NCBI GenBank assembly: GCA_016927995.1
Contig: JAFGLO010000015.1
Coordinates: forward strand, 75,430 to 139,429
Direction of reading: 5' to 3'
DNA: 64,000 bases
Source of the DNA: Candidatus Dojkabacteria bacterium
GTDB taxonomy: Bacteria > Patescibacteriota > Dojkabacteria > JAFGLO01
Each line of letters starts with the position of its first letter. Within the stretch, counting starts at the first letter, position 1. The position numbers were made by a program, and so were the translations under genes. The notes under the pieces are model-generated. The model searched no databases, was not told the origin of the DNA, and saw only the letters and a list, made by a program, of their open reading frames with translations. Positions 667 to 64,000 of this stretch are shown here, one piece after another.

Positions 667-1858
667 TAAATCGGGTTTAAGTTTATTATTCTTTACAATC
701 TTGGGGAGCTCGTTAGGTTTTACTTTGGTTGCACAGCTATTCTTAAATCAGGTTAAGGCCGAGTCACACTATCAAACAGTTGATGTAGACAGAAATATAG
801 CGGAATCGGGATTTGATAAGTATGCAAAGGTCGAGAAAATAGTATTATGTAACATTGATAAATCTAGTTTATATAATAATGTTTCGTCAGAAGATTGGTA
901 CAAATCTCTATATTTTTATACAATAACATCACTTCATTTTTATGATATTCCATACAATTTTGTATATGATGGTGGAACTATATATCAGGGACGGCAAACT
1001 TCACATTGGGTAGATTTACAGCCACTTGTTGTAAACAACACTCAGGGAATCGTGCTTGTTGGCGTAACAAATCTCGCAGGGAGTCTAGATTCTACACTTT
1101 CCTCGTTTATTTCGTATCTTTTAGATGTATACGATATTTCTCCGAGTGCAGTTTTGGTAAAAGATTGTAAAATTGAAAAGACCCAAATTCAAGATAGTTT
1201 TGTGTCAAATTTCTCGCTTGAAGAATCTTTTGTTAGCATATCTTCTTTTGTTGGACAACTTTCAGTGTCCGACAATTTTAAGCGAACTTACGAGGGGAGT
1301 GTAACAACAGTTTCCAATGAGGAATATACAGATCCCGACAAAAATCTGTCTGTAAAAATTAATATTGAGAATACCGGCGATTATGCTTGGTATGCAGTAG
1401 ACGATTTCTACATTGTTACAACCGACTTGTTTTTGCATGATAGTCAATTCTTTTTAACAGGAGTATGGCCAAGCAGATCACATGCAAAAAAAATCGATCA
1501 GGATATACCTCCGGGAGAAACTATTCCAATCACTTTTGAACTTAGACCGGGAATAATGCCCGGAGAATATACGGAAAAGTTCATTATCGTTGACAAAAAC
1601 AAACTACCCATACAAGGAACCGAATTTAGCGTAAGCTTTATTACAAACAATGTTGACTATACTTTTGTACGTGTAAAAGAAAATCAGTGGGGCTTTTTAA
1701 ATGTACGTGAAAGTCCATCCTCATCAGCAGAAATAGTAACGAAAGTGTCGCCGGGTGAGATTTTCATTGTTGTAGAGCATGTTAATTCGTGGTACAAAAT
1801 TAAGATAGATGAGACTCGCGAAGGCTGGGTTTCGGGAACATATATAGAATTTCTTTAA
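659..1858 (+). CDS. Secreted or membrane-anchored protein with C-terminal bacterial SH3 (SH3b) domain
   Basis: GTG start overlapping the upstream stop. N-terminal hydrophobic signal/anchor. C-terminus matches the SH3_3 pattern (FVRVKE...WGFLNVRESPS...WYKI...GWVSGTYIEF). Confidence 0.5.
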   Translation: MNSKSGLSLLFFTILGSSLGFTLVAQLFLNQVKAESHYQTVDVDRNIAESGFDKYAKVEKIVLCNIDKSSLYNNVSSEDWYKSLYFYTITSLHFYDIPYNFVYDGGTIYQGRQTSHWVDLQPLVVNNTQGIVLVGVTNLAGSLDSTLSSFISYLLDVYDISPSAVLVKDCKIEKTQIQDSFVSNFSLEESFVSISSFVGQLSVSDNFKRTYEGSVTTVSNEEYTDPDKNLSVKINIENTGDYAWYAVDDFYIVTTDLFLHDSQFFLTGVWPSRSHAKKIDQDIPPGETIPITFELRPGIMPGEYTEKFIIVDKNKLPIQGTEFSVSFITNNVDYTFVRVKENQWGFLNVRESPSSSAEIVTKVSPGEIFIVVEHVNSWYKIKIDETREGWVSGTYIEFL

Positions 1859-3804
1859 TGGATCTTCAGACACTTAACGACAAGCAAAAAGAGGCAGTTA
1901 CTTATTTTGATTCTCCACTTTTGGTTTTTGCAGGTGCAGGCTCCGGAAAAACTCGTGTTATCGTTCACAAAATCGCATATTTAATCAATGAGCTTAAGGT
2001 TTCGCCACATAACATTTTGGCACTTACCTTTACCAAAAAAGCTGCAGAAGAAATGAGAAGTAGAGTATCCCAGATGCTTAACTCAAGTGTAAATCTTAAG
2101 GGTATGTTTGTTGGAACGTTTCATTCATGGGGTGCATATATTCTACGTCGGGAATCCCAAGAGATAGGTCTTAATCAAAACTTTCCAATATTCGACAGTA
2201 CCGACAAAGACAACATAATTAAAGAAATAATAAAAGATTTTAACATTGGTAAGGTTTCATTTGGTGCAGTTTCTGCCGTAATTTCAAGGCTTAAGAGTGA
2301 CTTGATTTCAAGTTCCGACTACTTAAAACTTAATTTTAGCTCTCCTCAGGTTGAGCTAATGGCTAAAGTATATGACGAATACGAAAAACGCAAGTCCAAC
2401 ATGGGTGGAGTTGATTTTGATGACCTGTTAGCGTATCCGCTTAAATTGTTTTCTGAGAATTCCGAAATTTTACAAAAATATAAACAGACTTATTCATACA
2501 TTCTTGTCGATGAATACCAAGATACCAACAAAACCCAATATAAGCTAATCAAGAATATTTCAAACGAAAATGTGTGTGTAGTGGGTGACGACGACCAAAG
2601 TATTTATTCATGGCGGGGTGCAATTATTGAAAATATCCTGAGATTTAAATCTGACTTTGCACAGGCAAAGATCATTAAACTTGATACAAATTATAGATCC
2701 ACACAAAAAATAATTGATGCCGCATATGGTCTTGTTGCAAATAACACAAAGCGTGAAGATAAAGAAGTTTTTTCTGTCTCTGATACAGGCGAAGATCTTA
2801 CCTTGTACGAAGGCGATGACGAGAACGACGAAGCTTTCTTTGTGATAAGTCGGATCCAAAAGCTTTTGGATGAGGGTTATTCTTTTAATGATATTGCCAT
2901 TTTCTATAGAACAAACAGCCAATCCCGTGTGATTGAGGAACAGTTGGTAAGTTATGGATTGCCGTATAGGATATACGGAGGGTACCGGTTTTACGAACGT
3001 GCTGAAATAAAAGATCTAATTGGATATATTTCCTTTCTTGTTGACAACAAAGATGACATATCTCTATTTAGAATACTTAATACACCTGCAAGGAAAATCG
3101 GACCGTCAGCTATTTCGAAACTTAAGGAAGTTTCGTCACAAAACGGTATAAGCGCCAAGGAGTTAGTAAGAGCATATATTGTTAATTCCGGGGTTGCACT
3201 ACCGTTTGGAAGTAATACCAAAAGTCTTTCCGACAAAGACATAAAAGCCCTTAAATTCTTGGACAAGTTTGTAGAAGCTTTTAGGGAAATTGATTTTTCA
3301 AGGTTTTCAACCCTTACCGAATTTGTTACCACTATAATTGAAACAACTAATTACAAAGAGTATTTAGCCAATAAATACCCCGAGCTATACGAAGAAAAAC
3401 TTGAGAATATTGTTCAACTAAAACACGTCACCGAAAAATATGGATTTCAAAACAGTGACCTGCTTAATTTCCTAGAAGAGGTCGTACTAATGCTGGATAT
3501 TGAGAGTGAATCAACGAATAAAGAAGGTGCAGTAAATCTTATGACACTACATGCTTCAAAGGGTCTTGAGTTCTCGGTTGTGTTTATTGTTGGGATTGAG
3601 GAGGGGGTCCTGCCACATTTTAGATCACTTGAAAGTACCGATGCAGTTGAAGAAGAGCGTAGACTTTTATATGTTGGCATCACTCGTGCGAAGCGAAAAG
3701 TATTTTTAAGTTATACAAGATTTAATTCAGCAAGACTTATGTCCAGAAGTCCTTCTCGCTTTTTAAGTGAGATCCCGGAGGAACATCTTCAGATAATTAT
3801 GTAA
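1858..3804 (+). CDS. uvrD: ATP-dependent DNA helicase, UvrD/PcrA family (SF1)
   Basis: Walker A GAGSGKT, DEYQDT motif and UvrD_C motifs (LMTLHASKGLEF, VGITRAK). 648 aa. Confidence 0.85.
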   Translation: MDLQTLNDKQKEAVTYFDSPLLVFAGAGSGKTRVIVHKIAYLINELKVSPHNILALTFTKKAAEEMRSRVSQMLNSSVNLKGMFVGTFHSWGAYILRRESQEIGLNQNFPIFDSTDKDNIIKEIIKDFNIGKVSFGAVSAVISRLKSDLISSSDYLKLNFSSPQVELMAKVYDEYEKRKSNMGGVDFDDLLAYPLKLFSENSEILQKYKQTYSYILVDEYQDTNKTQYKLIKNISNENVCVVGDDDQSIYSWRGAIIENILRFKSDFAQAKIIKLDTNYRSTQKIIDAAYGLVANNTKREDKEVFSVSDTGEDLTLYEGDDENDEAFFVISRIQKLLDEGYSFNDIAIFYRTNSQSRVIEEQLVSYGLPYRIYGGYRFYERAEIKDLIGYISFLVDNKDDISLFRILNTPARKIGPSAISKLKEVSSQNGISAKELVRAYIVNSGVALPFGSNTKSLSDKDIKALKFLDKFVEAFREIDFSRFSTLTEFVTTIIETTNYKEYLANKYPELYEEKLENIVQLKHVTEKYGFQNSDLLNFLEEVVLMLDIESESTNKEGAVNLMTLHASKGLEFSVVFIVGIEEGVLPHFRSLESTDAVEEERRLLYVGITRAKRKVFLSYTRFNSARLMSRSPSRFLSEIPEEHLQIIM

Positions 3805-4356
3805 ACCTGTGGAAGCTTTTGTGTTACGATTTGTTGTGTTTTCATTAAAGAATAACACTTCAAGCTTTGTCAAACATGATTTCCCGTGGTGATGAACTTT
3901 AATAGGGGATCCGAATTATATTGAAACTCGCTATTTCAGACGATTTCTTTAACTTAAATTTTTGGGTAATTTAGAGTTGACCCACGTGCAAGTTTTTTGA
4001 GCATTAAAGCGACCTGCAGGAGGCGACTTTGAGGGTGTATACCTTGCGTGTACGTGTCTGTACCTGTTTTGTATACAAGTTATTGAGAAGCAAAGCTCTT
4101 TTTAAAAAAGTTGGAAAATCTTTCTACTGCTTAACTTTAGTAGTCAGTACCGAAATTCATAAACAGTGATTTTGCGTGATTTGAGGATATTTATATAAGA
4201 TAATTTAGGAGATGATCAATTGTAACGCCATTCTTTTTCAGCCTGTTACAATAGTCGCAATAGTGCTTTTGTTAGATGGTTTTATGACCTATCTGTTGTT
4301 GTCTCCGTTCCGAGTTTTTGTTATAGTGAAGAAGTATTATATACCGTCAAAACATA

Positions 4357-5715
4357 ATGCAACTATTCAATAAATTAAAGAAAACTTTCGGACTTCGCGA
4401 AAGTTCTAGAATTAATCGTTATTTTAATATTGTTAGCACTTTTTTCTTTGTTATATTTGCGTTGTTTTCAACCTTTAGAGTATCCCCCGCATATGCCGGT
4501 TCAATTGAACAAGCTGCACTTGTTGCACTTGCAAATGTTGATAGAATTTCCCGTGGATTAATTCCCTTGCAAGTAAACAACGAACTTGTGGCAGCAGCGT
4601 ATCTAAAGGCTTATGACATGCTTGATAAACAGTACTGGGCACACTATGGTCCCTCCGGAGAGAGTCCGTGGATGTATATTTTGTCATCGGGATACGATTA
4701 TACCTATGCAGGTGAGAACCTAGCTTATGGTTTCGAGGACTCATCCGGGGTGCACGAAGCATGGATGAATAGCCCGACTCATCGAGACAACATATTAAAT
4801 AACAGCTTTATTGATGTAGGAATTGCTGTTGTTAAGGGCTTCTTTGAAGGATCCGAGACTACCCTAGTTGTGCAACTTTTTGGATCGCTTGGTGATTCAT
4901 CCAAAACGGTTGATATATCATCGAAGCCGTTAAATATCCTTTATCCGACAGAAGGTTCTGTTGTAATTGATGAGCTGTTCGGTGTGCTGGGAACTGTTTC
5001 AACCGATGTACAAAATCCGCTGGTTCAGATTTTCATGGATGGTGAGAGTATTGGTGGAGCAATTATTTCGAGTGGGACCTTTAGTAAACGATTAAACTTT
5101 TCAAAACGAGGTGGGCATAAACTTACTGCCGATCTACTGGATTCAATGGGAAATATTGTTTATAGTGACATGGTAAATTATGAAATTGCAAACAATAATT
5201 GGGTCCAATTAGCTCCAACCAACCTTTCTTATGAACGATTAACAGATGACACATATAATTTAACTGGAACGGTAACAAAGGACGTTCTAAAAGCGAATAT
5301 TAAAACATCAACAGATGTTATTAATTGTAATGTGATAAATCAATCGCTAACGTGTGTTGTACCCAAGAAGATTTTTGAACAAAAAAATAAACAGTTAATC
5401 CTTCTTGACAACTCCGGAACGGCTGCCAATGTGGGTGTCGATAATCTTATTGTATATGGTGTTTCGGGAGCTGTGTTCATGGGAAGTAATGTACTTGGTC
5501 GGCTTCTTACCGAAGGGCAACAGATGACTTCAAAGTTTTTGAACCGGGGAACAATCGGTCTGTTTTTGTCGATATTTGTAATGATTGAGATTATTCGTGT
5601 AATTATATTGTGGAGAAATAACAGCTACAAAGGTCACTACGGCTACAGAGTTCTTATATTCATGCTTGCGCTTTTTGCACAGCTTTCATTTACTGGGGGA
5701 GGGATAGTTATATGA
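4357..5715 (+). CDS. Secreted CAP/SCP (YkwD-like) domain protein with C-terminal transmembrane segment
   Basis: N-terminal signal peptide. CAP-domain motifs (HYGPSGESPW, GENLAYG, HEAWMNSPTHRDNIL). Hydrophobic helix near the C-terminus. Confidence 0.5.
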   Translation: MQLFNKLKKTFGLRESSRINRYFNIVSTFFFVIFALFSTFRVSPAYAGSIEQAALVALANVDRISRGLIPLQVNNELVAAAYLKAYDMLDKQYWAHYGPSGESPWMYILSSGYDYTYAGENLAYGFEDSSGVHEAWMNSPTHRDNILNNSFIDVGIAVVKGFFEGSETTLVVQLFGSLGDSSKTVDISSKPLNILYPTEGSVVIDELFGVLGTVSTDVQNPLVQIFMDGESIGGAIISSGTFSKRLNFSKRGGHKLTADLLDSMGNIVYSDMVNYEIANNNWVQLAPTNLSYERLTDDTYNLTGTVTKDVLKANIKTSTDVINCNVINQSLTCVVPKKIFEQKNKQLILLDNSGTAANVGVDNLIVYGVSGAVFMGSNVLGRLLTEGQQMTSKFLNRGTIGLFLSIFVMIEIIRVIILWRNNSYKGHYGYRVLIFMLALFAQLSFTGGGIVI

Positions 5716-8604: not shown

Positions 8605-9716
8605 AAATTGCTGCCGAAATTGCAACTTCGGAGTTACGGGCATGTTATACATCCGATGGTATTATTGCCGGATCTACAACGTATGACGACTATTGGACGG
8701 GGGATTTTTTCTGGGCTGCACTTGGAGCTTTGAGCTTAGGCGATGTTGCTCCTGTTATTTCTCATGTAAAATTGCTTGCAAGGTTTCAGCGAAAAAGTGG
8801 ACAGATTCCATTTTTAATAAGAAGAAATTTTCCGGTTCTCCCATTTTGTGGAATAAAGGTTGGAATTCCTTATATCTCACAAGTAAGAAGTCATAAGTTT
8901 TTCTTTTTAAGCTCGTTTTCTGACAGCACTCCATATTTTATTATTTTACTTTCGGAATTGTGGGAAAAAGGAATTTTAGAAAAAGCAGATTATTTAGAAA
9001 ATTTTAGACATGCTGTTAACTGGTGTATACAAAGAATAGGCAAGGATAACCTTGTATTTGATTTACCAATATCTGGTTGGAACGATGGAGTTTACAAGCT
9101 TGGTAAAGTGCTCTATACAAATGTGCTATTTTATAAAGCGTTAGTGGAAGCTGGTTCAATTTCCAGTGAGGCTAGAGATATTTCTCAAAGGGTCTTAAAG
9201 TCGATTCGTGAAAAGCTATGGGGTAATGGTTATTATAATGACTGGGTATTTTTAAAATCTCATACAAACTTTTGTACTGTAGGCAATATGCTTGCAGTAG
9301 TTTATGACGTCGCGACAAAAGCAGAAGTTGTATCAATATTGGATTTTGTGGAAAAAAATCTATATAAGGATCCTTTTGTTAGTACTGTTTTTCCGGCATA
9401 TAAACAACACAAAATTGATATTTGGAATCGGCTTAGTGGAATGGGCGATTATGCCAACGGAAGTAGTGTGTACTGGCTTGAGCCTGTGCTTTTATATGTA
9501 ATCGCACTTGCCCAAATTGGACTTAAATCCAAAGCCGTTAATATCTTTAAGAAAGTGGCTAGTCAGATAGTAAGGTCGATAGGGGTGTACGAGATATATG
9601 ATTCGAAAGGAAAACCGTTTAGCAGTAGGTTATATAAATCTGAACATCCTTTTGCAAGGAGTTGCGGACTCTTTCTTTTAGCAAAAGAATCGCTTAAAGA
9701 TTTTCACCACCAATAA
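8574..9716 (+). CDS. (alpha/alpha)6-barrel glycoside-hydrolase-like protein (GDE_C / amylo-alpha-1,6-glucosidase-like)
   Basis: Composition and motifs (YDDYWTGDFFWAALGA, WNDG, YYNDW) resemble six-hairpin glycosidases. Overlaps the trmD 3' end by 31 nt. Confidence 0.35.
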   Translation: MARVSAQENIKIAAEIATSELRACYTSDGIIAGSTTYDDYWTGDFFWAALGALSLGDVAPVISHVKLLARFQRKSGQIPFLIRRNFPVLPFCGIKVGIPYISQVRSHKFFFLSSFSDSTPYFIILLSELWEKGILEKADYLENFRHAVNWCIQRIGKDNLVFDLPISGWNDGVYKLGKVLYTNVLFYKALVEAGSISSEARDISQRVLKSIREKLWGNGYYNDWVFLKSHTNFCTVGNMLAVVYDVATKAEVVSILDFVEKNLYKDPFVSTVFPAYKQHKIDIWNRLSGMGDYANGSSVYWLEPVLLYVIALAQIGLKSKAVNIFKKVASQIVRSIGVYEIYDSKGKPFSSRLYKSEHPFARSCGLFLLAKESLKDFHHQ

Positions 9717-10266
9717 GGATAATGTTTTTAGGATCCAGAATTCGTTCTATAAACATATCACGTTTTTTGCGCCTAAAGTCGAACTCATCTTTTGTTAGAA
9801 CGGAATACTTAATTTCGCGCTTTTCTTCTGTTTCGACTTGTTTTACAAGGTGGCTTGCAACGGGCACGTGAATTTCTCCGACCAATAAAAGGTCGACATC
9901 GTACTGGTTTTTGTGGGTATTGTTAACATAGTTTATTGTTAAAATAGCAATTTGAACATTTCCAATAGCCGTTGAATTTTGAATGATACTTTTCCCAAGT
10001 CCTGTTGTTTTATATACAAGTCTTAGAAATTCTTCATAAAGTGGAAATTGCGGATTGGCAGAAAACATTTTTTTTCGACCGGCCTTTTCGGCTTTAATAA
10101 AGCCAATATCGAGTAGGTTAGCAAGCTCACGGCTTACGGCATTTACCTGTTTTTTTATAATTCTAGAGATGCTTCTTAGGTGGATTTTTTCTCCCGGGTT
10201 TTTAATAAACCAGGTAATAAGTGATCTTCTTGTGTCAGCAGTTAGTATCTTGTCTAATATGTCCAT
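9694..10266 (-). CDS. Winged-helix (ArsR/MarR-like) DNA-binding protein, possibly with a C-terminal nucleotidyltransferase-like domain
   Basis: The N-terminal 90 aa look like a winged HTH. The C-terminal G..x..YDVDLLLVGE stretch is weakly NTase-like. Confidence 0.35.
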   Translation of the reverse strand: MDILDKILTADTRRSLITWFIKNPGEKIHLRSISRIIKKQVNAVSRELANLLDIGFIKAEKAGRKKMFSANPQFPLYEEFLRLVYKTTGLGKSIIQNSTAIGNVQIAILTINYVNNTHKNQYDVDLLLVGEIHVPVASHLVKQVETEEKREIKYSVLTKDEFDFRRKKRDMFIERILDPKNIILIGGENL

Positions 10267-10330
10267 ATAGAAATTCTAAAGGTTAATATACTACTATACC
10301 ATACTTTTTGTGAACATTTCAATAATCAGG

Positions 10331-11680
10331 CTACCTGTCTTGCAATGTATACAGGTTTATCGGAAGAATCATAACCCAGATTTGACCCCTATTAAATACT
10401 ACCTCCTCATTGGTTCCTCTAACGTAATATTTTGTTCTGTCGTTAACATTGGATTTACTCCATGTCGCATCGATTTTTTTACCGTCTATATAAATTGTAG
10501 CGTTTCCTTGTCCCGTGGTCCCAAGTATAAGATGACCCTCATAATCAAAGCTTTGAGTAAATGTAGTCTCCTCAATGATTACTGTTTTAACGGAGATTTG
10601 ACTACCCGTTATTGCGTCAACATGAGGTTGTCCGGCTAAATATCGTTTATAAGAATTGGAATCTTTGTCATATTTAAACTCAACGTCCATTCCGGATGTA
10701 AAGTTCTTCCAGGGTATAACATAGCACGAGGTTTCACCTCGATTGGTGTACGTTGCATCGGTTTTAAAAGGAGGGTTAGTGAAATTACTTTCCATACTAT
10801 AGCCAAGTGTTTTAGCAGCACTGATCATATCTTCTGTGTTTACGTATGCGTTGTGTGGTGATGCACGCTTGCTGTCTCGCCAATAAATGTCGGAGAATCC
10901 AACGGTTTTAACGTTGTATGTAAATAATGCACCCATTGCATTTGTATTTGGACTGTCTGTTACGGCCCCGCCAATATGGGCATAGATTGCATCGAATGGC
11001 AGAAGCCAGTGAATATAATAAAGCCTTGTGCTTCTTACCGGACCTACGTATTCAGGCATGTGTGACCAATAAATTGGCATGAATCTTGTAATTCCGCCTT
11101 CTGCAAGTGTTTCAAAAACGATATCGGCATATATAAGTCCCGTTTGGGGTCTTGCGTCGGGGTGGTTCTCTATCATCACGGCGATTGGGGGTGTTTCTGT
11201 CATTTTTTCGTATTCTTTTACAGACATAAATATCCCGTTTATTGGGTTCTCCATGGTTTTAGGGTCAGAAATCTGTTCCAAAAATATGCTTGGGTTGGGA
11301 TTGTTTACTTTTGCGTCAATATCAGAGGGAAGATTGATTTTTTGTGGGTCAACTCTACTGGTAATTGACGTGTAGGTGAAATATCCGATTCCTCCGATTA
11401 TTAAGGCAAATGGAAGTGATATTACAAGTATTCGTGGGACGAATGGTAGTTTTGAGACCCAGTTCTTGATGGCTTTTAAAAACTTTAAGAGTTTACGTTC
11501 TTTTATTTTGGTGGGAATTGAGGATTCTAATGGGGTATGTGTCATTGGAGATGTGGCATGTTTTGGGTCGATCGGTGAATTGGTAGCGGTTGAATGTGTT
11601 TTCGAGGGTAAGCTTTGATTAATGTTGGGGTTTTTTGTGGTATCAATGATTTTCATTTTTATGGTGCTTAAGTTAATCAA
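10331..11680 (-). CDS. Membrane-anchored extracytoplasmic protein, DUF3048 (YerB-like) family candidate
   Basis: N-terminal Pro/Thr/Ser-rich region, a transmembrane helix, then a large conserved domain (MPIYWSHMPEYVGPVRSTRLYYIHW...). Confidence 0.3.
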   Translation of the reverse strand: MINLSTIKMKIIDTTKNPNINQSLPSKTHSTATNSPIDPKHATSPMTHTPLESSIPTKIKERKLLKFLKAIKNWVSKLPFVPRILVISLPFALIIGGIGYFTYTSITSRVDPQKINLPSDIDAKVNNPNPSIFLEQISDPKTMENPINGIFMSVKEYEKMTETPPIAVMIENHPDARPQTGLIYADIVFETLAEGGITRFMPIYWSHMPEYVGPVRSTRLYYIHWLLPFDAIYAHIGGAVTDSPNTNAMGALFTYNVKTVGFSDIYWRDSKRASPHNAYVNTEDMISAAKTLGYSMESNFTNPPFKTDATYTNRGETSCYVIPWKNFTSGMDVEFKYDKDSNSYKRYLAGQPHVDAITGSQISVKTVIIEETTFTQSFDYEGHLILGTTGQGNATIYIDGKKIDATWSKSNVNDRTKYYVRGTNEEVVFNRGQIWVMILPINLYTLQDR

Positions 11681-59518: not shown

Positions 59519-59606
59519 GGAGAGGTGCCTGAGTGGTCGAAAGGACCGCTTTCGAAAAGCGGCGTCCCGCTTGTCGGGACCGTGGGTTCGAATCCCACCC
59601 TCTCCG
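59519..59606 (+). tRNA. tRNA-Ser (anticodon CGA), class II with long variable arm
   Basis: Acceptor GGAGAGG/CCTCTCC. Anticodon stem CCGCT/AGCGG with loop TTCGAAA. Variable arm CGTCCCGCTTGTCGGGACC. T-arm GTGGG-TTCGAAT-CCCAC. Confidence 0.8.
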
Positions 59607-59716
59607 GGTGGCACCCAAAGGGTGTCAGCCGGAGAGGGATGAAGTAGGAGAGCCCAGTGAAACGGGGGCGGAACGTACCATAAAGAAAATATCAGCACGT
59701 CTTGGCCGAAGGCCAA

Positions 59717-59732
59717 AATCCCACCCTCTCCG
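59717..59732 (+). repeat. Copy of the tRNA-Ser 3' end (AATCCCACCCTCTCCG)
   Basis: Exact 16-nt match to 59591-59606. Confidence 0.8.
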
Positions 59733-59851
59733 AGTGTGTGATTCTTCGCCACGGTATTCTGGTCAAATTCTTCCCGCAAGCCTAGGCTTTCGGGAAAGTT
59801 AGCCCCTTTATAGGTGTGCGGGCTGGGTTCCCTGTCTGCCGACAGGTAGAG

Positions 59852-59867
59852 AATCCCACCCTCTCCG
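59852..59867 (+). repeat. Second copy of the tRNA-Ser 3' end (AATCCCACCCTCTCCG)
   Basis: Exact 16-nt match to 59591-59606. Confidence 0.8.
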
Positions 59868-59983
59868 CAGATGTGCTTTAGTATACAATATTTGACTTAC
59901 CCATATTTGAAAAGGTAATATAGGCCAATATGAAAGAACCTACTATACAAACATAGGTTATACAAAGGGCCAAAAAAAGATTA

Positions 59984-60205
59984 TTGATTGTGGGATTGGT
60001 AATACTTGGCTTGTTTGTAATATATGCAATTATTCCTAAAAGATGCGACGATTATGTGATTTTTACTGGGCATATTACTGGAGGTAGTGATGATTCTGGG
60101 TACATTTTAGTATGTGAATGTATTGGATATAAAATTCAAAGAAAATATGCTCCTACCGATAATTCTGGCACGTGCATTGGGATAATGTATCATAGGAAAG
60201 AATAA
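59984..60205 (+). CDS. Small hypothetical protein with N-terminal transmembrane helix, Cys-containing
   Basis: ORF only. Confidence 0.25.
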   Translation: MIVGLVILGLFVIYAIIPKRCDDYVIFTGHITGGSDDSGYILVCECIGYKIQRKYAPTDNSGTCIGIMYHRKE

Positions 60206-60369
60206 ATGAACGAGGGGCAGGGGAACAAGCTGTGTTGGAAAAGTATTATCCTGATGCCCAAATTACTGCGATTGGCTTGTCTCATGCAGGGTCAGAGTTT
60301 TTAGTGATGTTTGATATTGCCAAATGGATTAAAGAAAATTTTGGGATCGAGGCTACGCCTTTTCCAGAG

Positions 60370-60388
60370 AAAAACTGGTGGAGGTAAT
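60370..60388 (+). repeat. 19-bp direct repeat AAAAACTGGTGGAGGTAAT (copy 1)
   Basis: Exact match to 61909-61927. Confidence 0.75.
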
Positions 60389-60449
60389 ACCATCATCTCA
60401 AAGGTTATTGCTTAATCGGTAATACATTCTAATATAACAAAGCTGATTA

Positions 60450-60611
60450 CTATATTAGAGGGCTTTTGATATTTTCGGTGTCCAGCTGACTTAAGTTCTT
60501 TTTTCTAAAAGTGAAATACTTCTTGAGACCATTCACATAACTTTTTATTGTTCTGGGGCTGTAATCACGAATTTCGAGCTCTCGTATTGTTATATTCAGT
60601 TCTTTTTGCAT
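60450..60611 (-). pseudogene. Tyrosine recombinase (phage-integrase) N-terminal fragment, truncated after 53 codons
   Basis: Hand translation gives MQKELNITIRELEIRDYSPRTIKSYVNGLKKYFTFRKKN.. then a stop. The ..YSPRTIKSY.. pattern is the integrase N-terminal SAM-like domain signature. No downstream frame continues the protein. Confidence 0.5.
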
Positions 60612-60669
60612 AAAAATATGGTTATGATAAAATTAGGACAGTTAATTTAGTGTTATTATAGCAGGGTGG

Positions 60670-60706
60670 ATTCGTATAGTATACGAATTTTCGTATAAAT
60701 TACGAA
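60670..60706. promoter_or_regulatory. Tandem palindromic operator-like site ATTCGTATAgTATACGAAT followed by TTCGTAtaaatTACGAA, 50-90 bp upstream of the DUF1801 gene
   Basis: Two perfect inverted repeats share TTCGTA/TACGAA half-sites. The region is divergent between the integrase remnant and the DUF1801 gene. Confidence 0.45.
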
Positions 60707-60756
60707 AACACTTCGGATAGTAACGAGTTGTACGCAATTCAAAAAAAGAGGTTTAT

Positions 60757-61101
60757 ATGGATGAAAAAATAAAACAATACATTGAAAAACAGAAGCCTAA
60801 AGAAAGACAGCTTATTGAAGAAGCGAGAAAATTAATATATGAAACGATTCCGGAATGTGATGAGTTTTTTCAATGGGGTGTTTTATGTTACTCTAAAGGC
60901 AAAATTTATATTGCTGCAATGAAGGACAGAATCCATGTAGGTTTTTCAATTATTGGTTTATCAAAAGAAGAGGTGAAAATTTTTGAAGGTAGTGGAAAAA
61001 CAGCCAGGCATATAAAAATATTTTCTGTTAATCAATTAGAAGAAAAAAATATTGCAGAATATGTTGAGATGGTTAATAAAAAAGCTGGTATACCTAGTTA
61101 A
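60757..61101 (+). CDS. DUF1801 (YdhG-like) domain protein
   Basis: Size and the conserved DUF1801 core pattern (..IPECDEFFQWGVLCYS.G..IYIAAMKDRIHVGF..). Confidence 0.5.
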   Translation: MDEKIKQYIEKQKPKERQLIEEARKLIYETIPECDEFFQWGVLCYSKGKIYIAAMKDRIHVGFSIIGLSKEEVKIFEGSGKTARHIKIFSVNQLEEKNIAEYVEMVNKKAGIPS

Positions 61102-61132
61102 CTTTTATTACCATTTTTTTTTGAACTGCGTA

Positions 61133-61215
61133 CAACAGCGTGTAGCCGGTTCGGGCGGAGTACCTCTCTCTCCCAAATTGCCTCCGCGAGTACGCTCCGG
61201 CAACTTCGGCTACAC
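61133..61215. repeat. GC-rich structured element: perfect 11-bp inverted repeat GCGTGTAGCCG / CGGCTACACGC enclosing nested GCGGAG/CTCCGC pairing
   Basis: Seen directly. Local GC content is far above the genome background. Confidence 0.5.
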
Positions 61216-61289
61216 GCGGAACGTTATGTGACATTTCGCGCACTGCCAAAAACGAAAAGGTTATAAATTTTGTTTTTTATATAGATACT

Positions 61290-61739
61290 ATGACGAAAAA
61301 AAGACATCAAAATATTCCTGCTTCTTATCTAACATTGTTCAAAGATAACAAAATCTTACTTCTTCGGCGTTGTAATACTGGATATGAAGACGGCAATTAC
61401 TCAATGGTTGCAGGACATGTTGATCCTTGCGAAACTTTTACTCAATGTATTATCAGAGAAGCAAAGGAAGAAGCAGGAATATTACTTAAACCTGAAGATT
61501 TGAAAGTTGTTCATGTAATGCACAGAAACTCTGGTACTGCTGAAAATAATGAAAGAGTTGATGTCTTTTTTATTGCTGAAAAATGGGGTGGTGAGATAGT
61601 AAACAAGGAACCTCACAAGTGCGATGATTTGTATTGGTTTGACTTGGATAGTATCCCAGAAAATGTCATCCCATATATCAAGCAAGCTATTGAAGGAATA
61701 AAAAATAAAATTTATTATAGTGAACATGGATGGCAGTGA
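61290..61739 (+). CDS. NUDIX hydrolase
   Basis: Nudix box GHVDPCETFTQCIIREAKEEAGI (G-x5-E-x7-REuxEExGu). Confidence 0.8.
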   Translation: MTKKRHQNIPASYLTLFKDNKILLLRRCNTGYEDGNYSMVAGHVDPCETFTQCIIREAKEEAGILLKPEDLKVVHVMHRNSGTAENNERVDVFFIAEKWGGEIVNKEPHKCDDLYWFDLDSIPENVIPYIKQAIEGIKNKIYYSEHGWQ

Positions 61740-61908
61740 GCGAAACGCTAAAGCCATGCTGCGCTCTCGTTCCGCTACGCTCCACTCGGGTCACATAACA
61801 CGGGATAAAAGGTTTGGCACTCGGCTCGTGTCTCACCAAAATTTTGCTCCACTCCGTTCCGCAAAACTTTGTATAGTCGCGGCACATTGTGGCGAAATTC
61901 CGTTCATT

Positions 61909-61927
61909 AAAAACTGGTGGAGGTAAT
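61909..61927 (+). repeat. 19-bp direct repeat AAAAACTGGTGGAGGTAAT (copy 2)
   Basis: Exact match to 60370-60388. Confidence 0.75.
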
Positions 61928-62122
61928 CAATGTGTTATAAGTCCATCTTAATGGCTGAGTTATCATACCCATCTTTAGTAGGCAAAACAATTAACGTTTC
62001 TGATCCTCGATATTAGGATATAACTACAGAGGTTCCTGTCTAATTGTGTTTGTATCTTATCGTTACTTTTTACTTTTACGTAATTTCTGCTATTATTTGT
62101 ATATAATTAGCTAACGTAATCC

Positions 62123-62554
62123 ATGATTAAGTCCAACCTAATAGCCCCATGCGGAATGAACTGTGCCTTATGTCTTGGGTATATCCGTGAAAAGAACCGT
62201 TGTGCAGGTTGTAGGGGAGACGAAAAGGGCATGCCAACGTATTGTGGAACCTGTAAAATGAAGGAGTGTGCAAAGGCAAAAGGATTTAAATACTGCTTTG
62301 AGTGTGATAAATATCCCTGTATGCTGGTAAAACATGTAGACAAGCGATACAGAACTCGTTATGGCATGAGCATGATAGAAAACCTAGACTTTATTAAAGC
62401 CCACGGAATTAGGGCATTTGTCAAAAAAGAAAAGGCCAGGTGGACGTGCAAATCCTGTGGAGCCATGCTTTGTGTTCATAGGCCAGTTTGTTTAAACTGT
62501 GGGGCGCAAAGGAATCCGCCGATGCCAGTTCCAACAAAGACAAGATCAAAGTAA
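62123..62554 (+). CDS. Cys-rich DUF3795-like protein
   Basis: N-terminal PCGMNCALCLGY... followed by multiple CxxC pairs (about 16 Cys in 143 aa), the pattern typical of DUF3795. Confidence 0.45.
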   Translation: MIKSNLIAPCGMNCALCLGYIREKNRCAGCRGDEKGMPTYCGTCKMKECAKAKGFKYCFECDKYPCMLVKHVDKRYRTRYGMSMIENLDFIKAHGIRAFVKKEKARWTCKSCGAMLCVHRPVCLNCGAQRNPPMPVPTKTRSK

Positions 62555-62590
62555 ACAATATCTTAACGGCTTTACTTGTTACCAACTTTA

Positions 62591-62624
62591 ATCGGTTCGC
62601 GTATAATCTATTAAGATAAGTTTT
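62591..62624 (+). repeat. 34-bp direct repeat ATCGGTTCGCGTATAATCTATTAAGATAAGTTTT (copy 1; contains TATAAT)
   Basis: Exact match to 63193-63226. Confidence 0.8.
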
Positions 62625-63096
62625 GTATTTTATCTTTATAAGAATTCTATTCAAGAGGAGAAAGGTTAAAAGATTTCTCATAATTTTCTTGTCAATGGTT
62701 ACACTTATTTCCATTTTGGTGGGAGTTATTTATTTCTTTTCATTTTGGTCGTGTGGTATGGATGATATGCAGAGGATATATTCTTGGCAGAAGTTTATTA
62801 TCCCAAGTGTATTAAGAAATGCACCTGAAAGCGAAACTATTAGTTGTTCTTGTGGTTATTATCCGAGTTGTGGAATTTTTGTTAAACATAATGAAACAAC
62901 AGAAAAAAATTTGGCTGATCTTATGCAGGATAATATCGTTTATTTTGAAAGTAATGGATACTATCTCACGATAGAGAGTTACTCTGGTGATGAACTTTAT
63001 TGTAAGGAAGGTTCATCAAAACTTGATTGTTTTCAGATGGTCAGTTATGAAAAGGATAATGCGACAATCCTAGCCGTTACATTTTATGACAGGTAG
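62623..63096 (+). CDS. Hypothetical membrane-anchored, Cys-containing protein
   Basis: N-terminal transmembrane helix. Begins right after the repeat. The C-terminal domain has a truncated paralog 600 bp downstream. Confidence 0.4.
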   Translation: MYFIFIRILFKRRKVKRFLIIFLSMVTLISILVGVIYFFSFWSCGMDDMQRIYSWQKFIIPSVLRNAPESETISCSCGYYPSCGIFVKHNETTEKNLADLMQDNIVYFESNGYYLTIESYSGDELYCKEGSSKLDCFQMVSYEKDNATILAVTFYDR

Positions 63097-63192
63097 TTAT
63101 TTGTCGTTTGGTTTCTTTCGCAACTTTGGGAACAGGTCCTGGAACATTGTAATTTGAGGTACTAAAGAAAAATTCGAGATTGAGCGACTCCG

Positions 63193-63226
63193 ATCGGTTC
63201 GCGTATAATCTATTAAGATAAGTTTT
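63193..63226 (+). repeat. 34-bp direct repeat (copy 2)
   Basis: Exact match to 62591-62624. Confidence 0.8.
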
Positions 63227-63231
63227 AATAA

Positions 63232-63381
63232 CAAAGTTTGGAAATTATAGTCTCTCCTGGAGAAATAGCCTATTGCTATCATGGAAGTGAATATTCGGAT
63301 AATGGTGATCGTAATGATTGTTTCAAGGTTGAGCATCTAGGATCTGATCGTTTAATTGTAACATTTTACAACAGGTGGTAG
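63232..63381 (+). pseudogene. Truncated paralog of the C-terminal domain of the 62623..63096 protein (no ATG start)
   Basis: Frame-1 translation ..SPGEIAYCYHGSEYSDNGDRNDCFKVEHLGSDRLIVTFYNRW* aligns with ..YSGDELYCKEGSSKLDCFQMVSYEKDNATILAVTFYDR*. Confidence 0.45.
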
Positions 63382-63605
63382 TGTTTGATATTAGAAAAAC
63401 AACAATTTGGCTGCTTTTGGTAAATGCAGCCTTCTGGCTTGTATATGCAATCTACTTTTCATTCCTTTGGTTTTGGGGAAGACCAGAGTATCTGATAATA
63501 AAGATACTACTTTTTATGGAACCAATTTTATATGTAGGTTCGCTCTGGGGGTTTGTAAAGAGAAACAGGTATATATATATGTTCAGTATTATTTGTGTTT
63601 GCTAA
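63375..63605 (+). CDS. Small 2-transmembrane-helix hypothetical membrane protein
   Basis: ORF and hydrophobicity only. Confidence 0.25.
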   Translation: MVVFDIRKTTIWLLLVNAAFWLVYAIYFSFLWFWGRPEYLIIKILLFMEPILYVGSLWGFVKRNRYIYMFSIICVC

Positions 63606-63812
63606 CACAATATTGTCAATAACAGATCAGTTTGGAATTTTAGACCTTCTATCCTTAGGGATAAGTTTTGTGTGTTTGGTTGGGCTATTGGCGAACTGGG
63701 CTCAAATATTCAAGAAAAAACCTTAGAGCACTTTAATCACATAGTACCAATAGACAGCATTCAAAAAATATATTACACTTGGGGTAGATAATAAATTAAA
63801 AAATCCCAGACA

Positions 63813-64000
63813 GATGAAGTTTTCAATCAAAACCACGGACATCGCAAAATACATGGCAAATATCGGGAGACTGGTTGATCCTAAACCGTCCATACCTGTT
63901 TTGGGGAATATCCTTATAAATGCATCAAAAGATGGAGTAATGTTTACTGCTTCAAATCTTGAACTTAGCATGCAGGTTACCCTAAAGGCCGATGTATCCG
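63813..64000 (+). CDS. dnaN: DNA polymerase III beta subunit (sliding clamp), N-terminal fragment (3' partial)
   Basis: MKFSIKTTDIAKYMANIGRLVDPKPSIPVLGNILINASKDGVMFTASNLELSM matches the DnaN N-terminal domain consensus (..P.LGN.L......L.L.A.DLE...). Confidence 0.75.

Follow-up and report, generated by a model that had tools for sequence, protein, structure and literature searches.

What fills the interval between a tRNA-Ser gene and dnaN on a chromosome of Candidatus Dojkabacteria, and how was it acquired? We addressed this question in a 64,000-nucleotide stretch of contig JAFGLO010000015.1 (hereafter the window; all positions without a locus name refer to it), whose host belongs to the Candidate Phyla Radiation (CPR), or Patescibacteria; its EF-Tu and KamA and the three island proteins annotated by NCBI are 100% identical to NCBI records of a single 158,798-bp contig. 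The original prediction, made from the sequence alone, had flagged 59900-63812 as an accessory island with small open reading frames (ORFs), dense repeats and mobile-element debris. Our analysis indicates that 60450-61892 is very probably a dead, sedentary chromosomal integron, located beside a tRNA-Ser integration hotspot. All the ORFs that had been listed do exist (ORF calls; Pfam PF13495, PF08818, PF00293 and PF12675), and the debris includes a real integrase remnant; the term was however too generic, because the repeats include an attI site, an intact attC site and a decayed one. The DUF1801 and NUDIX genes, which had been listed without this being recognised, are individual integron cassettes. 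The elements of the integron are the following (aa, amino acids; nt, nucleotides):

60450..60611, minus strand: integrase remnant, the first 53 codons, followed by stop codons (Pfam PF13495 Phage_int_SAM_4, E=3.3e-6)
60612..60729, plus strand: attI region, from alignments with relatives; crossover G|TT at 60727-60729
60728..61223, plus strand: cassette 1 with the DUF1801 gene, from R-box pairing and homology to L043/L044
60757-61101, plus strand: DUF1801 ORF (PF08818, 2.2e-9)
61130..61229, plus strand: attC1, intact (covariance model R1, 49.9 bits, E=1e-9; folds)
61224..61886, plus strand: cassette 2 with the NUDIX gene, from R-box pairing and the start of homology to L037/L039
61290-61739, plus strand: NUDIX ORF (PF00293, 2.7e-17)
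61790..61892, plus strand: attC2, decayed (R1 14.6 bits, E=0.53; comparison with L043:982-1075)

The integrase remnant and its attI site

The integrase fragment proved to be a genuine remnant: in addition to the Pfam match, it is 68% identical to the N-terminus of an intact 271-aa integrase found in loci L005 and L006 (fetched loci carry L numbers). No continuation past codon 53 was found in any frame, nor was a second integrase found in the window. An HMMER search with the 53-aa remnant returned 67 relatives (P0001-P0067), and a metagenome scan for relatives of the integrase yielded 32 loci. Full-length relatives measure 267-281 aa (about 270 aa) and are 68-50% identical to the remnant in their N-terminus. 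The genes of the relatives stand head-to-head with an attI site and cassette arrays. Most of the 67 relatives are short fragments (36-136 aa) with differing end points; pseudogenisation seems to be common in this integrase family, and some of the fragments may be contig-end cuts.

The sequence that leads from the integrase start to the first downstream gene is conserved in many of the loci and reads, in window orientation, GAAAACACTTCGkATAGTAACGA|GTT. This attI is kept in L003, L005-L007 and L015-L018, where similarity ends at the GTT and the sequences beyond are unrelated; blastn alignments of L005, L006 and L007 to the window end at 60731-60738. As in a canonical attI, the site adjoins the integrase gene and its crossover has a GTT core. 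Moreover, three near-identical pairs of loci (L005/L006, L013/L014 and L026/L030) diverge within a few nucleotides of the attI GTT, the first of them after 99.97% identity over 6 kb. Such divergence shows that cassettes have been replaced at attI in natural populations. Upstream of the crossover, three TTCGkATAr motifs are present at 60671, 60690 and 60712 (60671-60720); the first lies within the palindrome TTCGTATAgTATACGAA and the last is kept in the relatives (CTTCGTATAGTAACGA|GTT). These motifs are candidate integrase-binding sites, by analogy to DR1/DR2 and the L and R sites of attI1.

Cassette boundaries and attC sites

Both cassettes have defined boundaries. The first bases of cassette 1, TTGTACGC (directly after the G at 60727), are the reverse complement of its own R'' box, GCGTACAAC (61128-61136). 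Its palindrome ends in ...GGAAC GTTATGTGAC (61223), and the next palindrome opens with GTCACATAAC (61790). The start of cassette 2, TTATGTGAC, is in turn complementary to its own R'', the same sequence at 61790-61799. The reverse complementarity is exact over 9-10 nt in both cassettes and is chained from one to the next, which is the signature of cassettes circularising at G|TT. The same pattern was observed in L007, L008, L010, L014, L026 and L033.

To detect the attC sites, an energy-only hairpin scan found attC1 and missed attC2, while loose AAC...GTT pattern scans were unspecific, with dozens of chance matches. Since both were inadequate, we used a covariance model (CM) instead. This model, R1, was built from 12 post-cassette palindromes of L007, L008, L010, L014, L020 and L033, without any window sequence, and was applied with no filter to the two strands of the whole window (64 kb). 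The 12 training sites share a common plan: an R'' box in ...TAAC, a 12-bp L helix, two inner hairpins around an unpaired CCCAAAT and, in the 3' part, the motif AACTTC, L', a 4-nt spacer and R' GTT. Compensatory changes are seen at 9 of the 12 L-helix pairs, and none of 500 shuffles reached the observed covariation score. In the 64 kb, attC1 was the sole significant match, followed by attC2 (E=0.53). When 35 loci were scanned with R1, all 17 matches lay on the same side of the integrase as the cassettes and shared their orientation, and none lay downstream of integrases or in control loci.

The layout of attC1 comprises R'' GTACAAC, an 11-bp L helix, two inner hairpins around CCCAAATT, the spacer GGAAC and R' GTTATGT. 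The architecture of canonical attC sites, an imperfect palindrome with R'' (...AAC), L'', L' and R' (GTT...), is thus present, attC2 being recognisable only as a decayed copy. The latter retains the 5' half and the central CACCAAAATTT motif (from 61793 on in the CM alignment) and is homologous base by base to a bona fide attC, L043:982-1075; it has lost the L''/L' pairing and has ATTGTGG as its R' box, where GTTrygC is expected, the crossover base being changed from G to A. The L helix is continuous in 12 of the 12 family sites (95% of cells paired) and in attC1, and the extrahelical L-box bases that the I2 helix of integron integrases docks in canonical sites are absent from the family attC. 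The asymmetry of these sites is a 1-nt versus a 4-nt spacer.

Distribution of the two cassettes

Both cassettes have spread horizontally. The horizontally acquired content that had been predicted is real, and exchangeable, at least over 60728-61892, and the word accessory is right for the central 1.4 kb. Homologues of the DUF1801 protein at 90% identity or more are encoded on other contigs. In L043/L044, a DUF1801 cassette is 88.8% identical to that of the window over exactly 60727-61137, from R' to R''; over its 14 kb, L043 carries an array of small ORFs that share one orientation, and gives at least 20 attC matches. When L043:3731-4139 is compared with 60727-61137, R' through R'' is shared and the attC interiors beyond are unrelated. 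In the canonical model, attC travels with its upstream ORF. That the DUF1801 cassettes are alike only from R' to R'' suggests that crossover takes place at the R'' box too, hence at both R boxes, and hints at a lack of strand selectivity or at double-strand recombination.

The L043 array has other features of its own. Near-identical 157-nt attC matches recur in it at 1243, 1567, 2412, 2736, 3581 and 11288 (L043:1243-3737, 11288-11444) and 134-aa ORFs recur at 1744, 2913 and 7894, showing that cassettes were duplicated inside one array; it also holds a DDE transposase ORF (9491-10843). On the cassette side of L010 (1884-7712), a chained attC pair (GTTAGCT ... AGCTAAC) surrounds about 5.8 kb, an unusually large "cassette". 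It encodes a motif of the DLFAGIGGFHLAF type, as is usual in C5 cytosine DNA methyltransferases, and could be a restriction-modification cassette.

For the NUDIX cassette, nucleotide homology to L037 and L039 begins exactly at 61223. Homologues of the protein reach 95% identity in metagenome-assembled genomes (MAGs) of several phyla, labelled Patescibacteria, Moran-, Pace- and Magasanikbacteria, Flavobacterium, Prolixibacteraceae and Robiginitomaculum. By comparison, database searches with two other proteins of the host genome gave a next-best relative at 78% identity for EF-Tu and a nearest homologue at 54% for KamA. A value of 95% across phyla therefore indicates recent horizontal transfer. 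In L040 and L041, the NUDIX gene lies among attC sites of the same family; in Magasanikbacteria, it belongs to a MazG-NUDIX-GNAT cluster without attC. For both genes, homologues thus occur in other arrays or genomes with homology bounded by the R boxes, as for independently mobile cassettes. The NUDIX gene is repeatedly found beside MazG-like and GNAT acetyltransferase genes (L045/L047:8876-10913; L040:162-2703; L041:836-3955), and in Magasanikbacteria also beside a radical-SAM SPL-like gene, with overlapping reading frames. Such neighbourhoods may constitute a nucleotide-sanitising gene set, from which the NUDIX cassette would have been derived.

The integrase family

The longer relatives retrieved by phmmer have either TIGR02249 (integron integrase) or NF040815 ("site-specific tyrosine recombinase/integron integrase") as their best NCBIfam match, and, as for canonical IntI, TIGR02249 ranks first or second. 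Five relatives scored 194-224 against TIGR02249, all under its cutoff of 265; four of these five exceeded the NF040815 cutoff of 220 (224-239), L007 falling just short (218.5). The relatives match NF040815 and archaeal XerA full-length and ungapped, with E=1.1e-42 to Pyrococcus abyssi XerA (4A8E). Xer proteins act in chromosome-dimer resolution at dif. The integrase genes described here differ in that they adjoin attI and cassette arrays and that cassettes are replaced at attI.

As in VchIntIA (PDB 2A3V; E=1.2e-42), the relatives have an N-terminal SAM-like domain and a catalytic C-terminus that align. The alignment covers residues 4-168 and 197-270 and skips about 43 residues of the integron integrase. 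Consistent with this, the spacing between KGxKDR and HxLRH is 64-69 aa in 16 relatives versus about 108 in VchIntIA, and the relatives are about 270 aa long versus 320-337 for IntI1 and VchIntIA, in which the I2-helix segment is present (Messier & Roy 2001; Escudero et al. 2020; see PMC9668308 and PMC7790495). From the alignments, we identify the segment absent from the relatives as the IntI-specific additional domain (I2 helix). This domain is treated as defining for integron integrases and as required for cassette recombination (PMC9668308, PMC7790495); it is held to have enabled single-strand attC recombination, and no intermediates are known (PMC7790495). The family attC sites, lacking bulged L-helix bases, are consistent with integrases that lack I2.

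The tRNA-Ser hotspot and the left flank

On its left side, the integron is preceded by the following features:

59519..59606, plus strand: tRNA-Ser(CGA), the left landmark (ARAGORN; Rfam tRNA 58.1 bits)
59591, 59717 and 59852 (span 59591..59867), plus strand: three exact direct copies of the tRNA 3' end AATCCCACCCTCTCCG (repeat search)
59984..60205, plus strand: 73-aa ORF with a hydrophobic N-terminus/transmembrane segment and 4 Cys, putatively coding (no family match; unannotated by NCBI)
60232..60387, plus strand: 51-aa ORF or fragment ending in EKNWWR (no family match; confirmed in assembly L042)

The tRNA is the sole Rfam match in the window. Integration at the tRNA has left the copies of its 3' end as att-like scars: three exact 16-nt copies are present versus 0.36 expected, and no fourth copy exists anywhere in the window. 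Between these copies and the integrase remnant (59868-60449), no recognisable attC was found. In the relative L005, a tRNA-Ser(CGA) that is 83% identical is located beyond the integrase, with a 5-kb element separating it from this intact integron integrase. The proteins of this element (L005:5031-6658; also 1600-4924) include a 522-aa large serine recombinase with Resolvase, Recombinase and Zn_ribbon_recom domains, a Replic_Relax protein and an HTH_36 protein. The recombinase ORF runs into the antisense tRNA 3' end.

The density of repeats that had been reported is real and, besides the 16-nt copies, includes an exact 34-nt pair (see below) and the exact 19-nt pair (60370-60388 and 61909-61927; 0.07 expected by chance). 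Copy 1 of the latter is carried by the 3' end of the EKNWWR ORF; the two copies, 1539 bp apart, bracket the integrase remnant and both cassettes, and at each of them a short ORF ends in ...KNWWR*. Their core, AACTGGyGGAG, is similar to the antisense 3' end of tRNA-Ser with its CCA at L005:6565-6580. The 19-nt repeat may be an att core or a rearrangement scar. We also considered the EKNWWR fragment as a possible serine-recombinase C-terminus or antisense tRNA end; the resemblance to L005 is limited to the short core, with no protein similarity. In the fetched loci, neither the 19-nt nor the 34-nt repeat had a match, except for the 19-mer in L042, an independent Logan assembly of the same strain.

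L042 reproduces 59838-61161 at 100% identity. The Logan contigs of this strain (SRR13394437) break at ~59604, ~59838 and 61161; the first break falls at the 3' end of tRNA-Ser, the second immediately ahead of the third att copy and the last within attC1. As the repeats at these breaks do not reach the length of a typical k-mer, the population may be heterogeneous at the hotspot.

The right flank and dnaN

To the right of attC2, the region contains:

61909..61927, plus strand: second copy of the exact 19-nt repeat AAAAACTGGTGGAGGTAAT, some 20 nt past attC2
62123..62554, plus strand: DUF3795 Cys-rich protein, 16 Cys in 143 aa (PF12675, 1.9e-9)
62591..63381, plus strand: partial tandem duplication, with two identical 34-nt leaders at 62591 and 63193
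62623-63096, plus strand: 157-aa membrane ORF, following the first 34-nt leader
63238-63381, plus strand: 47-aa remnant ORF, following the second 34-nt leader
63375..63605, plus strand: 76-aa two-helix ORF (no homologues found; unannotated by NCBI)
63814..64000, plus strand: start of dnaN, the right landmark (PF00712, 3e-12; ATG at 63814)

The count of 16 Cys in the DUF3795 protein was accurate. What had been described as a duplicated membrane-protein family is only a partial duplication, in which the 47-aa ORF matches the C-terminus of the 157-aa ORF (36% over 42 aa, E=0.036); each 34-nt leader has a promoter-like TATAAT. No significant attC surrounds the DUF3795 and membrane ORFs (CM R1), and the stretch up to dnaN, with its DUF3795 gene, duplicated membrane ORFs and small ORFs, may consist of either fossil cassettes or ordinary accessory genes. 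Coding density in the flagged region is about 67% with all small ORFs counted in. NCBI annotates only the DUF1801, NUDIX and DUF3795 proteins in the island, with exactly identical sequences, and exact-sequence look-ups of the NUDIX and DUF3795 proteins returned nothing.

The dnaN gene is confirmed and starts at 63814, one base after the predicted position. The absence of dnaA and of DnaA boxes upstream of it had been correctly noted: no box with at most one mismatch occurs between 59242 and 64000. GC skew is positive over the entire window and its sign never switches. Together, these results indicate that oriC is not here, and the search for it gave no signal in the window.

Alternative explanations

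The locus might be thought to be a conventional genomic island, i.e. a prophage or integrative-element remnant at tRNA-Ser, with the 53-aa fragment as its integrase relic and the ORFs up to dnaN as its cargo. The three exact copies of the 3' end that follow the tRNA, the 5-kb element that L005 bears at the same tRNA and the breaks of same-strain Logan contigs at ~59604 and ~59838 all agree with this view. However, a tRNA-linked island should have 3'-end repeats at both ends around its integrase, whereas here all of them lie within 59591-59867, none being distal to the integrase remnant or near dnaN. Moreover, the relatives of the remnant adjoin attI and cassette arrays, not island ends, the L005 tRNA element uses a serine recombinase distinct from the neighbouring integron integrase, and homology to other genomes is per cassette and stops at the GTT/AAC boxes. 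An island of this type probably explains 59607-60449 but not 60450-61892, and as an account of the whole we consider it improbable.

We give much less credit still to two other explanations. In one, the palindromes at 61130-61229 and 61790-61892 would be ordinary intergenic hairpins (terminators or repetitive extragenic palindromic-like elements) in a lineage-specific, vertically inherited core. They are indeed located just past stop codons, all genes of the region are co-oriented with the flanking core genes, and the databases contain no close relative for a synteny comparison that would prove presence or absence (next best 54% for KamA and 78% for EF-Tu; a contig scan with the KamA-like neighbour as query gave one 39% match in an unrelated MAG and nothing else). 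Against this, attC1 gives the family-specific CM its one significant match in the window (E=1e-9), the R''/R' boxes form a chain with the starts of the cassettes, the hairpins have no terminator-like T-tract, the same ORFs are found elsewhere between other attC sites, and the NUDIX protein is 95% identical across phyla. This reading is largely refuted for 60.7-61.9 kb. In the other, DUF1801, NUDIX and DUF3795 would form one anti-phage or nucleotide-detox module acquired together, as had been speculated for NUDIX and its Cys-rich neighbour. The three genes are adjacent and on the same strand, and the association of NUDIX with MazG and GNAT genes elsewhere hints at a role in nucleotide metabolism. 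In a PADLOC scan of the region's ORFs, NUDIX weakly matched the candidate PDC-S07 (2.7e-7), the other eight ORFs matching nothing. But attC1, between DUF1801 and NUDIX, and the decayed attC2 after NUDIX split the three genes into independent mobile units, and DUF3795 is a singleton at 90% identity. The trio, which had been proposed as a possible conserved neighbourhood, recurs in none of the five NUDIX contexts (L037, L039, L040, L041, L045-47) nor in L043/L044, and no context of a NUDIX or DUF1801 homologue holds the other two families. The module is therefore not supported and appears highly improbable.

Several observations also weigh against the integron itself. The 53-aa remnant is too short to be classified alone and its NCBIfam matches are weak (XerA 6e-5, IntI 5e-3). 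The window copy ends at residue 53. Its full-length relatives do not have the defining IntI-specific domain, so that we use "integron" in a functional sense. One attC is intact, one is decayed and there are no more, the third-best CM match in the island (62550-62626) having E=8.8. More than half of the flagged interval (59900-60449 and 61893-63812) is devoid of integron features. Finally, the pairing of cassette start and R'' is by itself no rarity: the window contains six other inverted GTT/AAC pairs of 10-mers, which arose by chance, and we therefore sought independent evidence for the cassettes.

Discussion

We propose that the integron at 60450-61892 had the following history. The minus-strand integrase, an integron-type tyrosine recombinase, would have recombined attI (G|TT, 60727) with the folded attC of circular cassettes, inserting mostly promoterless ORFs in a single orientation. 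Two such cassettes are left, DUF1801 with an intact attC and NUDIX with a decayed one, crossover G included. The integrase was later truncated to 53 codons, which leaves the array frozen unless another integrase acts in trans. A full-length integrase (~271 aa) would have reached ~59796, near the third copy of the tRNA 3' end (59852-59867); codon 53 is abutted by 582 bp of unrelated sequence (59868-60449, with the 73-aa ORF and the EKNWWR fragment), a junction confirmed by an independent assembly. Thus, repeated integration at tRNA-Ser followed by a deletion or rearrangement probably removed most of the integrase gene.

Xanthomonas integrons are sedentary chromosomal integrons with decayed integrases. 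The window copy is like such integrons in several respects: its minus-strand integrase gene is head-to-head with attI, an imperfect palindrome, delimited by ...AAC and GTT..., comes after each of its small ORFs, which share one orientation, crossover falls at G|TT, and a pseudogenised integrase accompanies a frozen array. It differs by its CPR host, by an integrase family without the IntI-specific domain, by attC sites with a bulge-free 12-bp L helix, a 1-nt versus 4-nt spacer and a central CCCAAAT, and by the number of these sites. IntegronFinder distinguishes the categories In0 and CALIN (Cury et al. 2016, PMC4889954; Néron et al. 2022, PMC9024848), the latter being defined by at least two attC sites with no integrase nearby (PMC4889954, PMC9024848). 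Here, one significant attC and one sub-threshold decayed attC, below the two of a CALIN, accompany an integrase pseudogene. The window copy is ordinary in kind as an integron remnant, and its family appears to be a new variant of integron.

Like the archaeal integrons (Ghaly et al. 2022, PMC9668308), this family lies outside the classical proteobacterial range, occurs in MAGs and has a semi-conserved attI beside intI; unlike them, it lacks the IntI-specific domain by which archaeal IntIs are defined (PMC9668308). In a literature search that was not exhaustive, we found no published description of integrons in CPR, Patescibacteria or Dojkabacteria, nor of integron integrases without I2. We tentatively suggest an undescribed clade of integrons, represented in a Dojkabacteria genome and at least 30 metagenomic loci, with I2-less integrases of about 270 aa, natural exchange at attI and a distinct type of attC, which has a bulge-free L helix, a spacer asymmetry of 1 versus 4 nt and CCCAAAT in a three-way junction. 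Between Xer-like recombinases and IntI, this clade might represent the missing intermediate that preceded I2; or else it might be a second solution to hairpin or double-strand attC recombination.

At the level of the genome, what had been a vague island becomes a gene-capture platform beside a tRNA hotspot, which received at least two widely travelling cassettes and was then inactivated. As the standard definition of a complete integron demands the IntI-specific profile, a family without I2 would be invisible to it, and integrons in CPR may be under-counted. If our reading of the clade is true, a natural and evidently active family of I2-less integrases with its own attI and attC sites would make the origin of IntI open to experiment.

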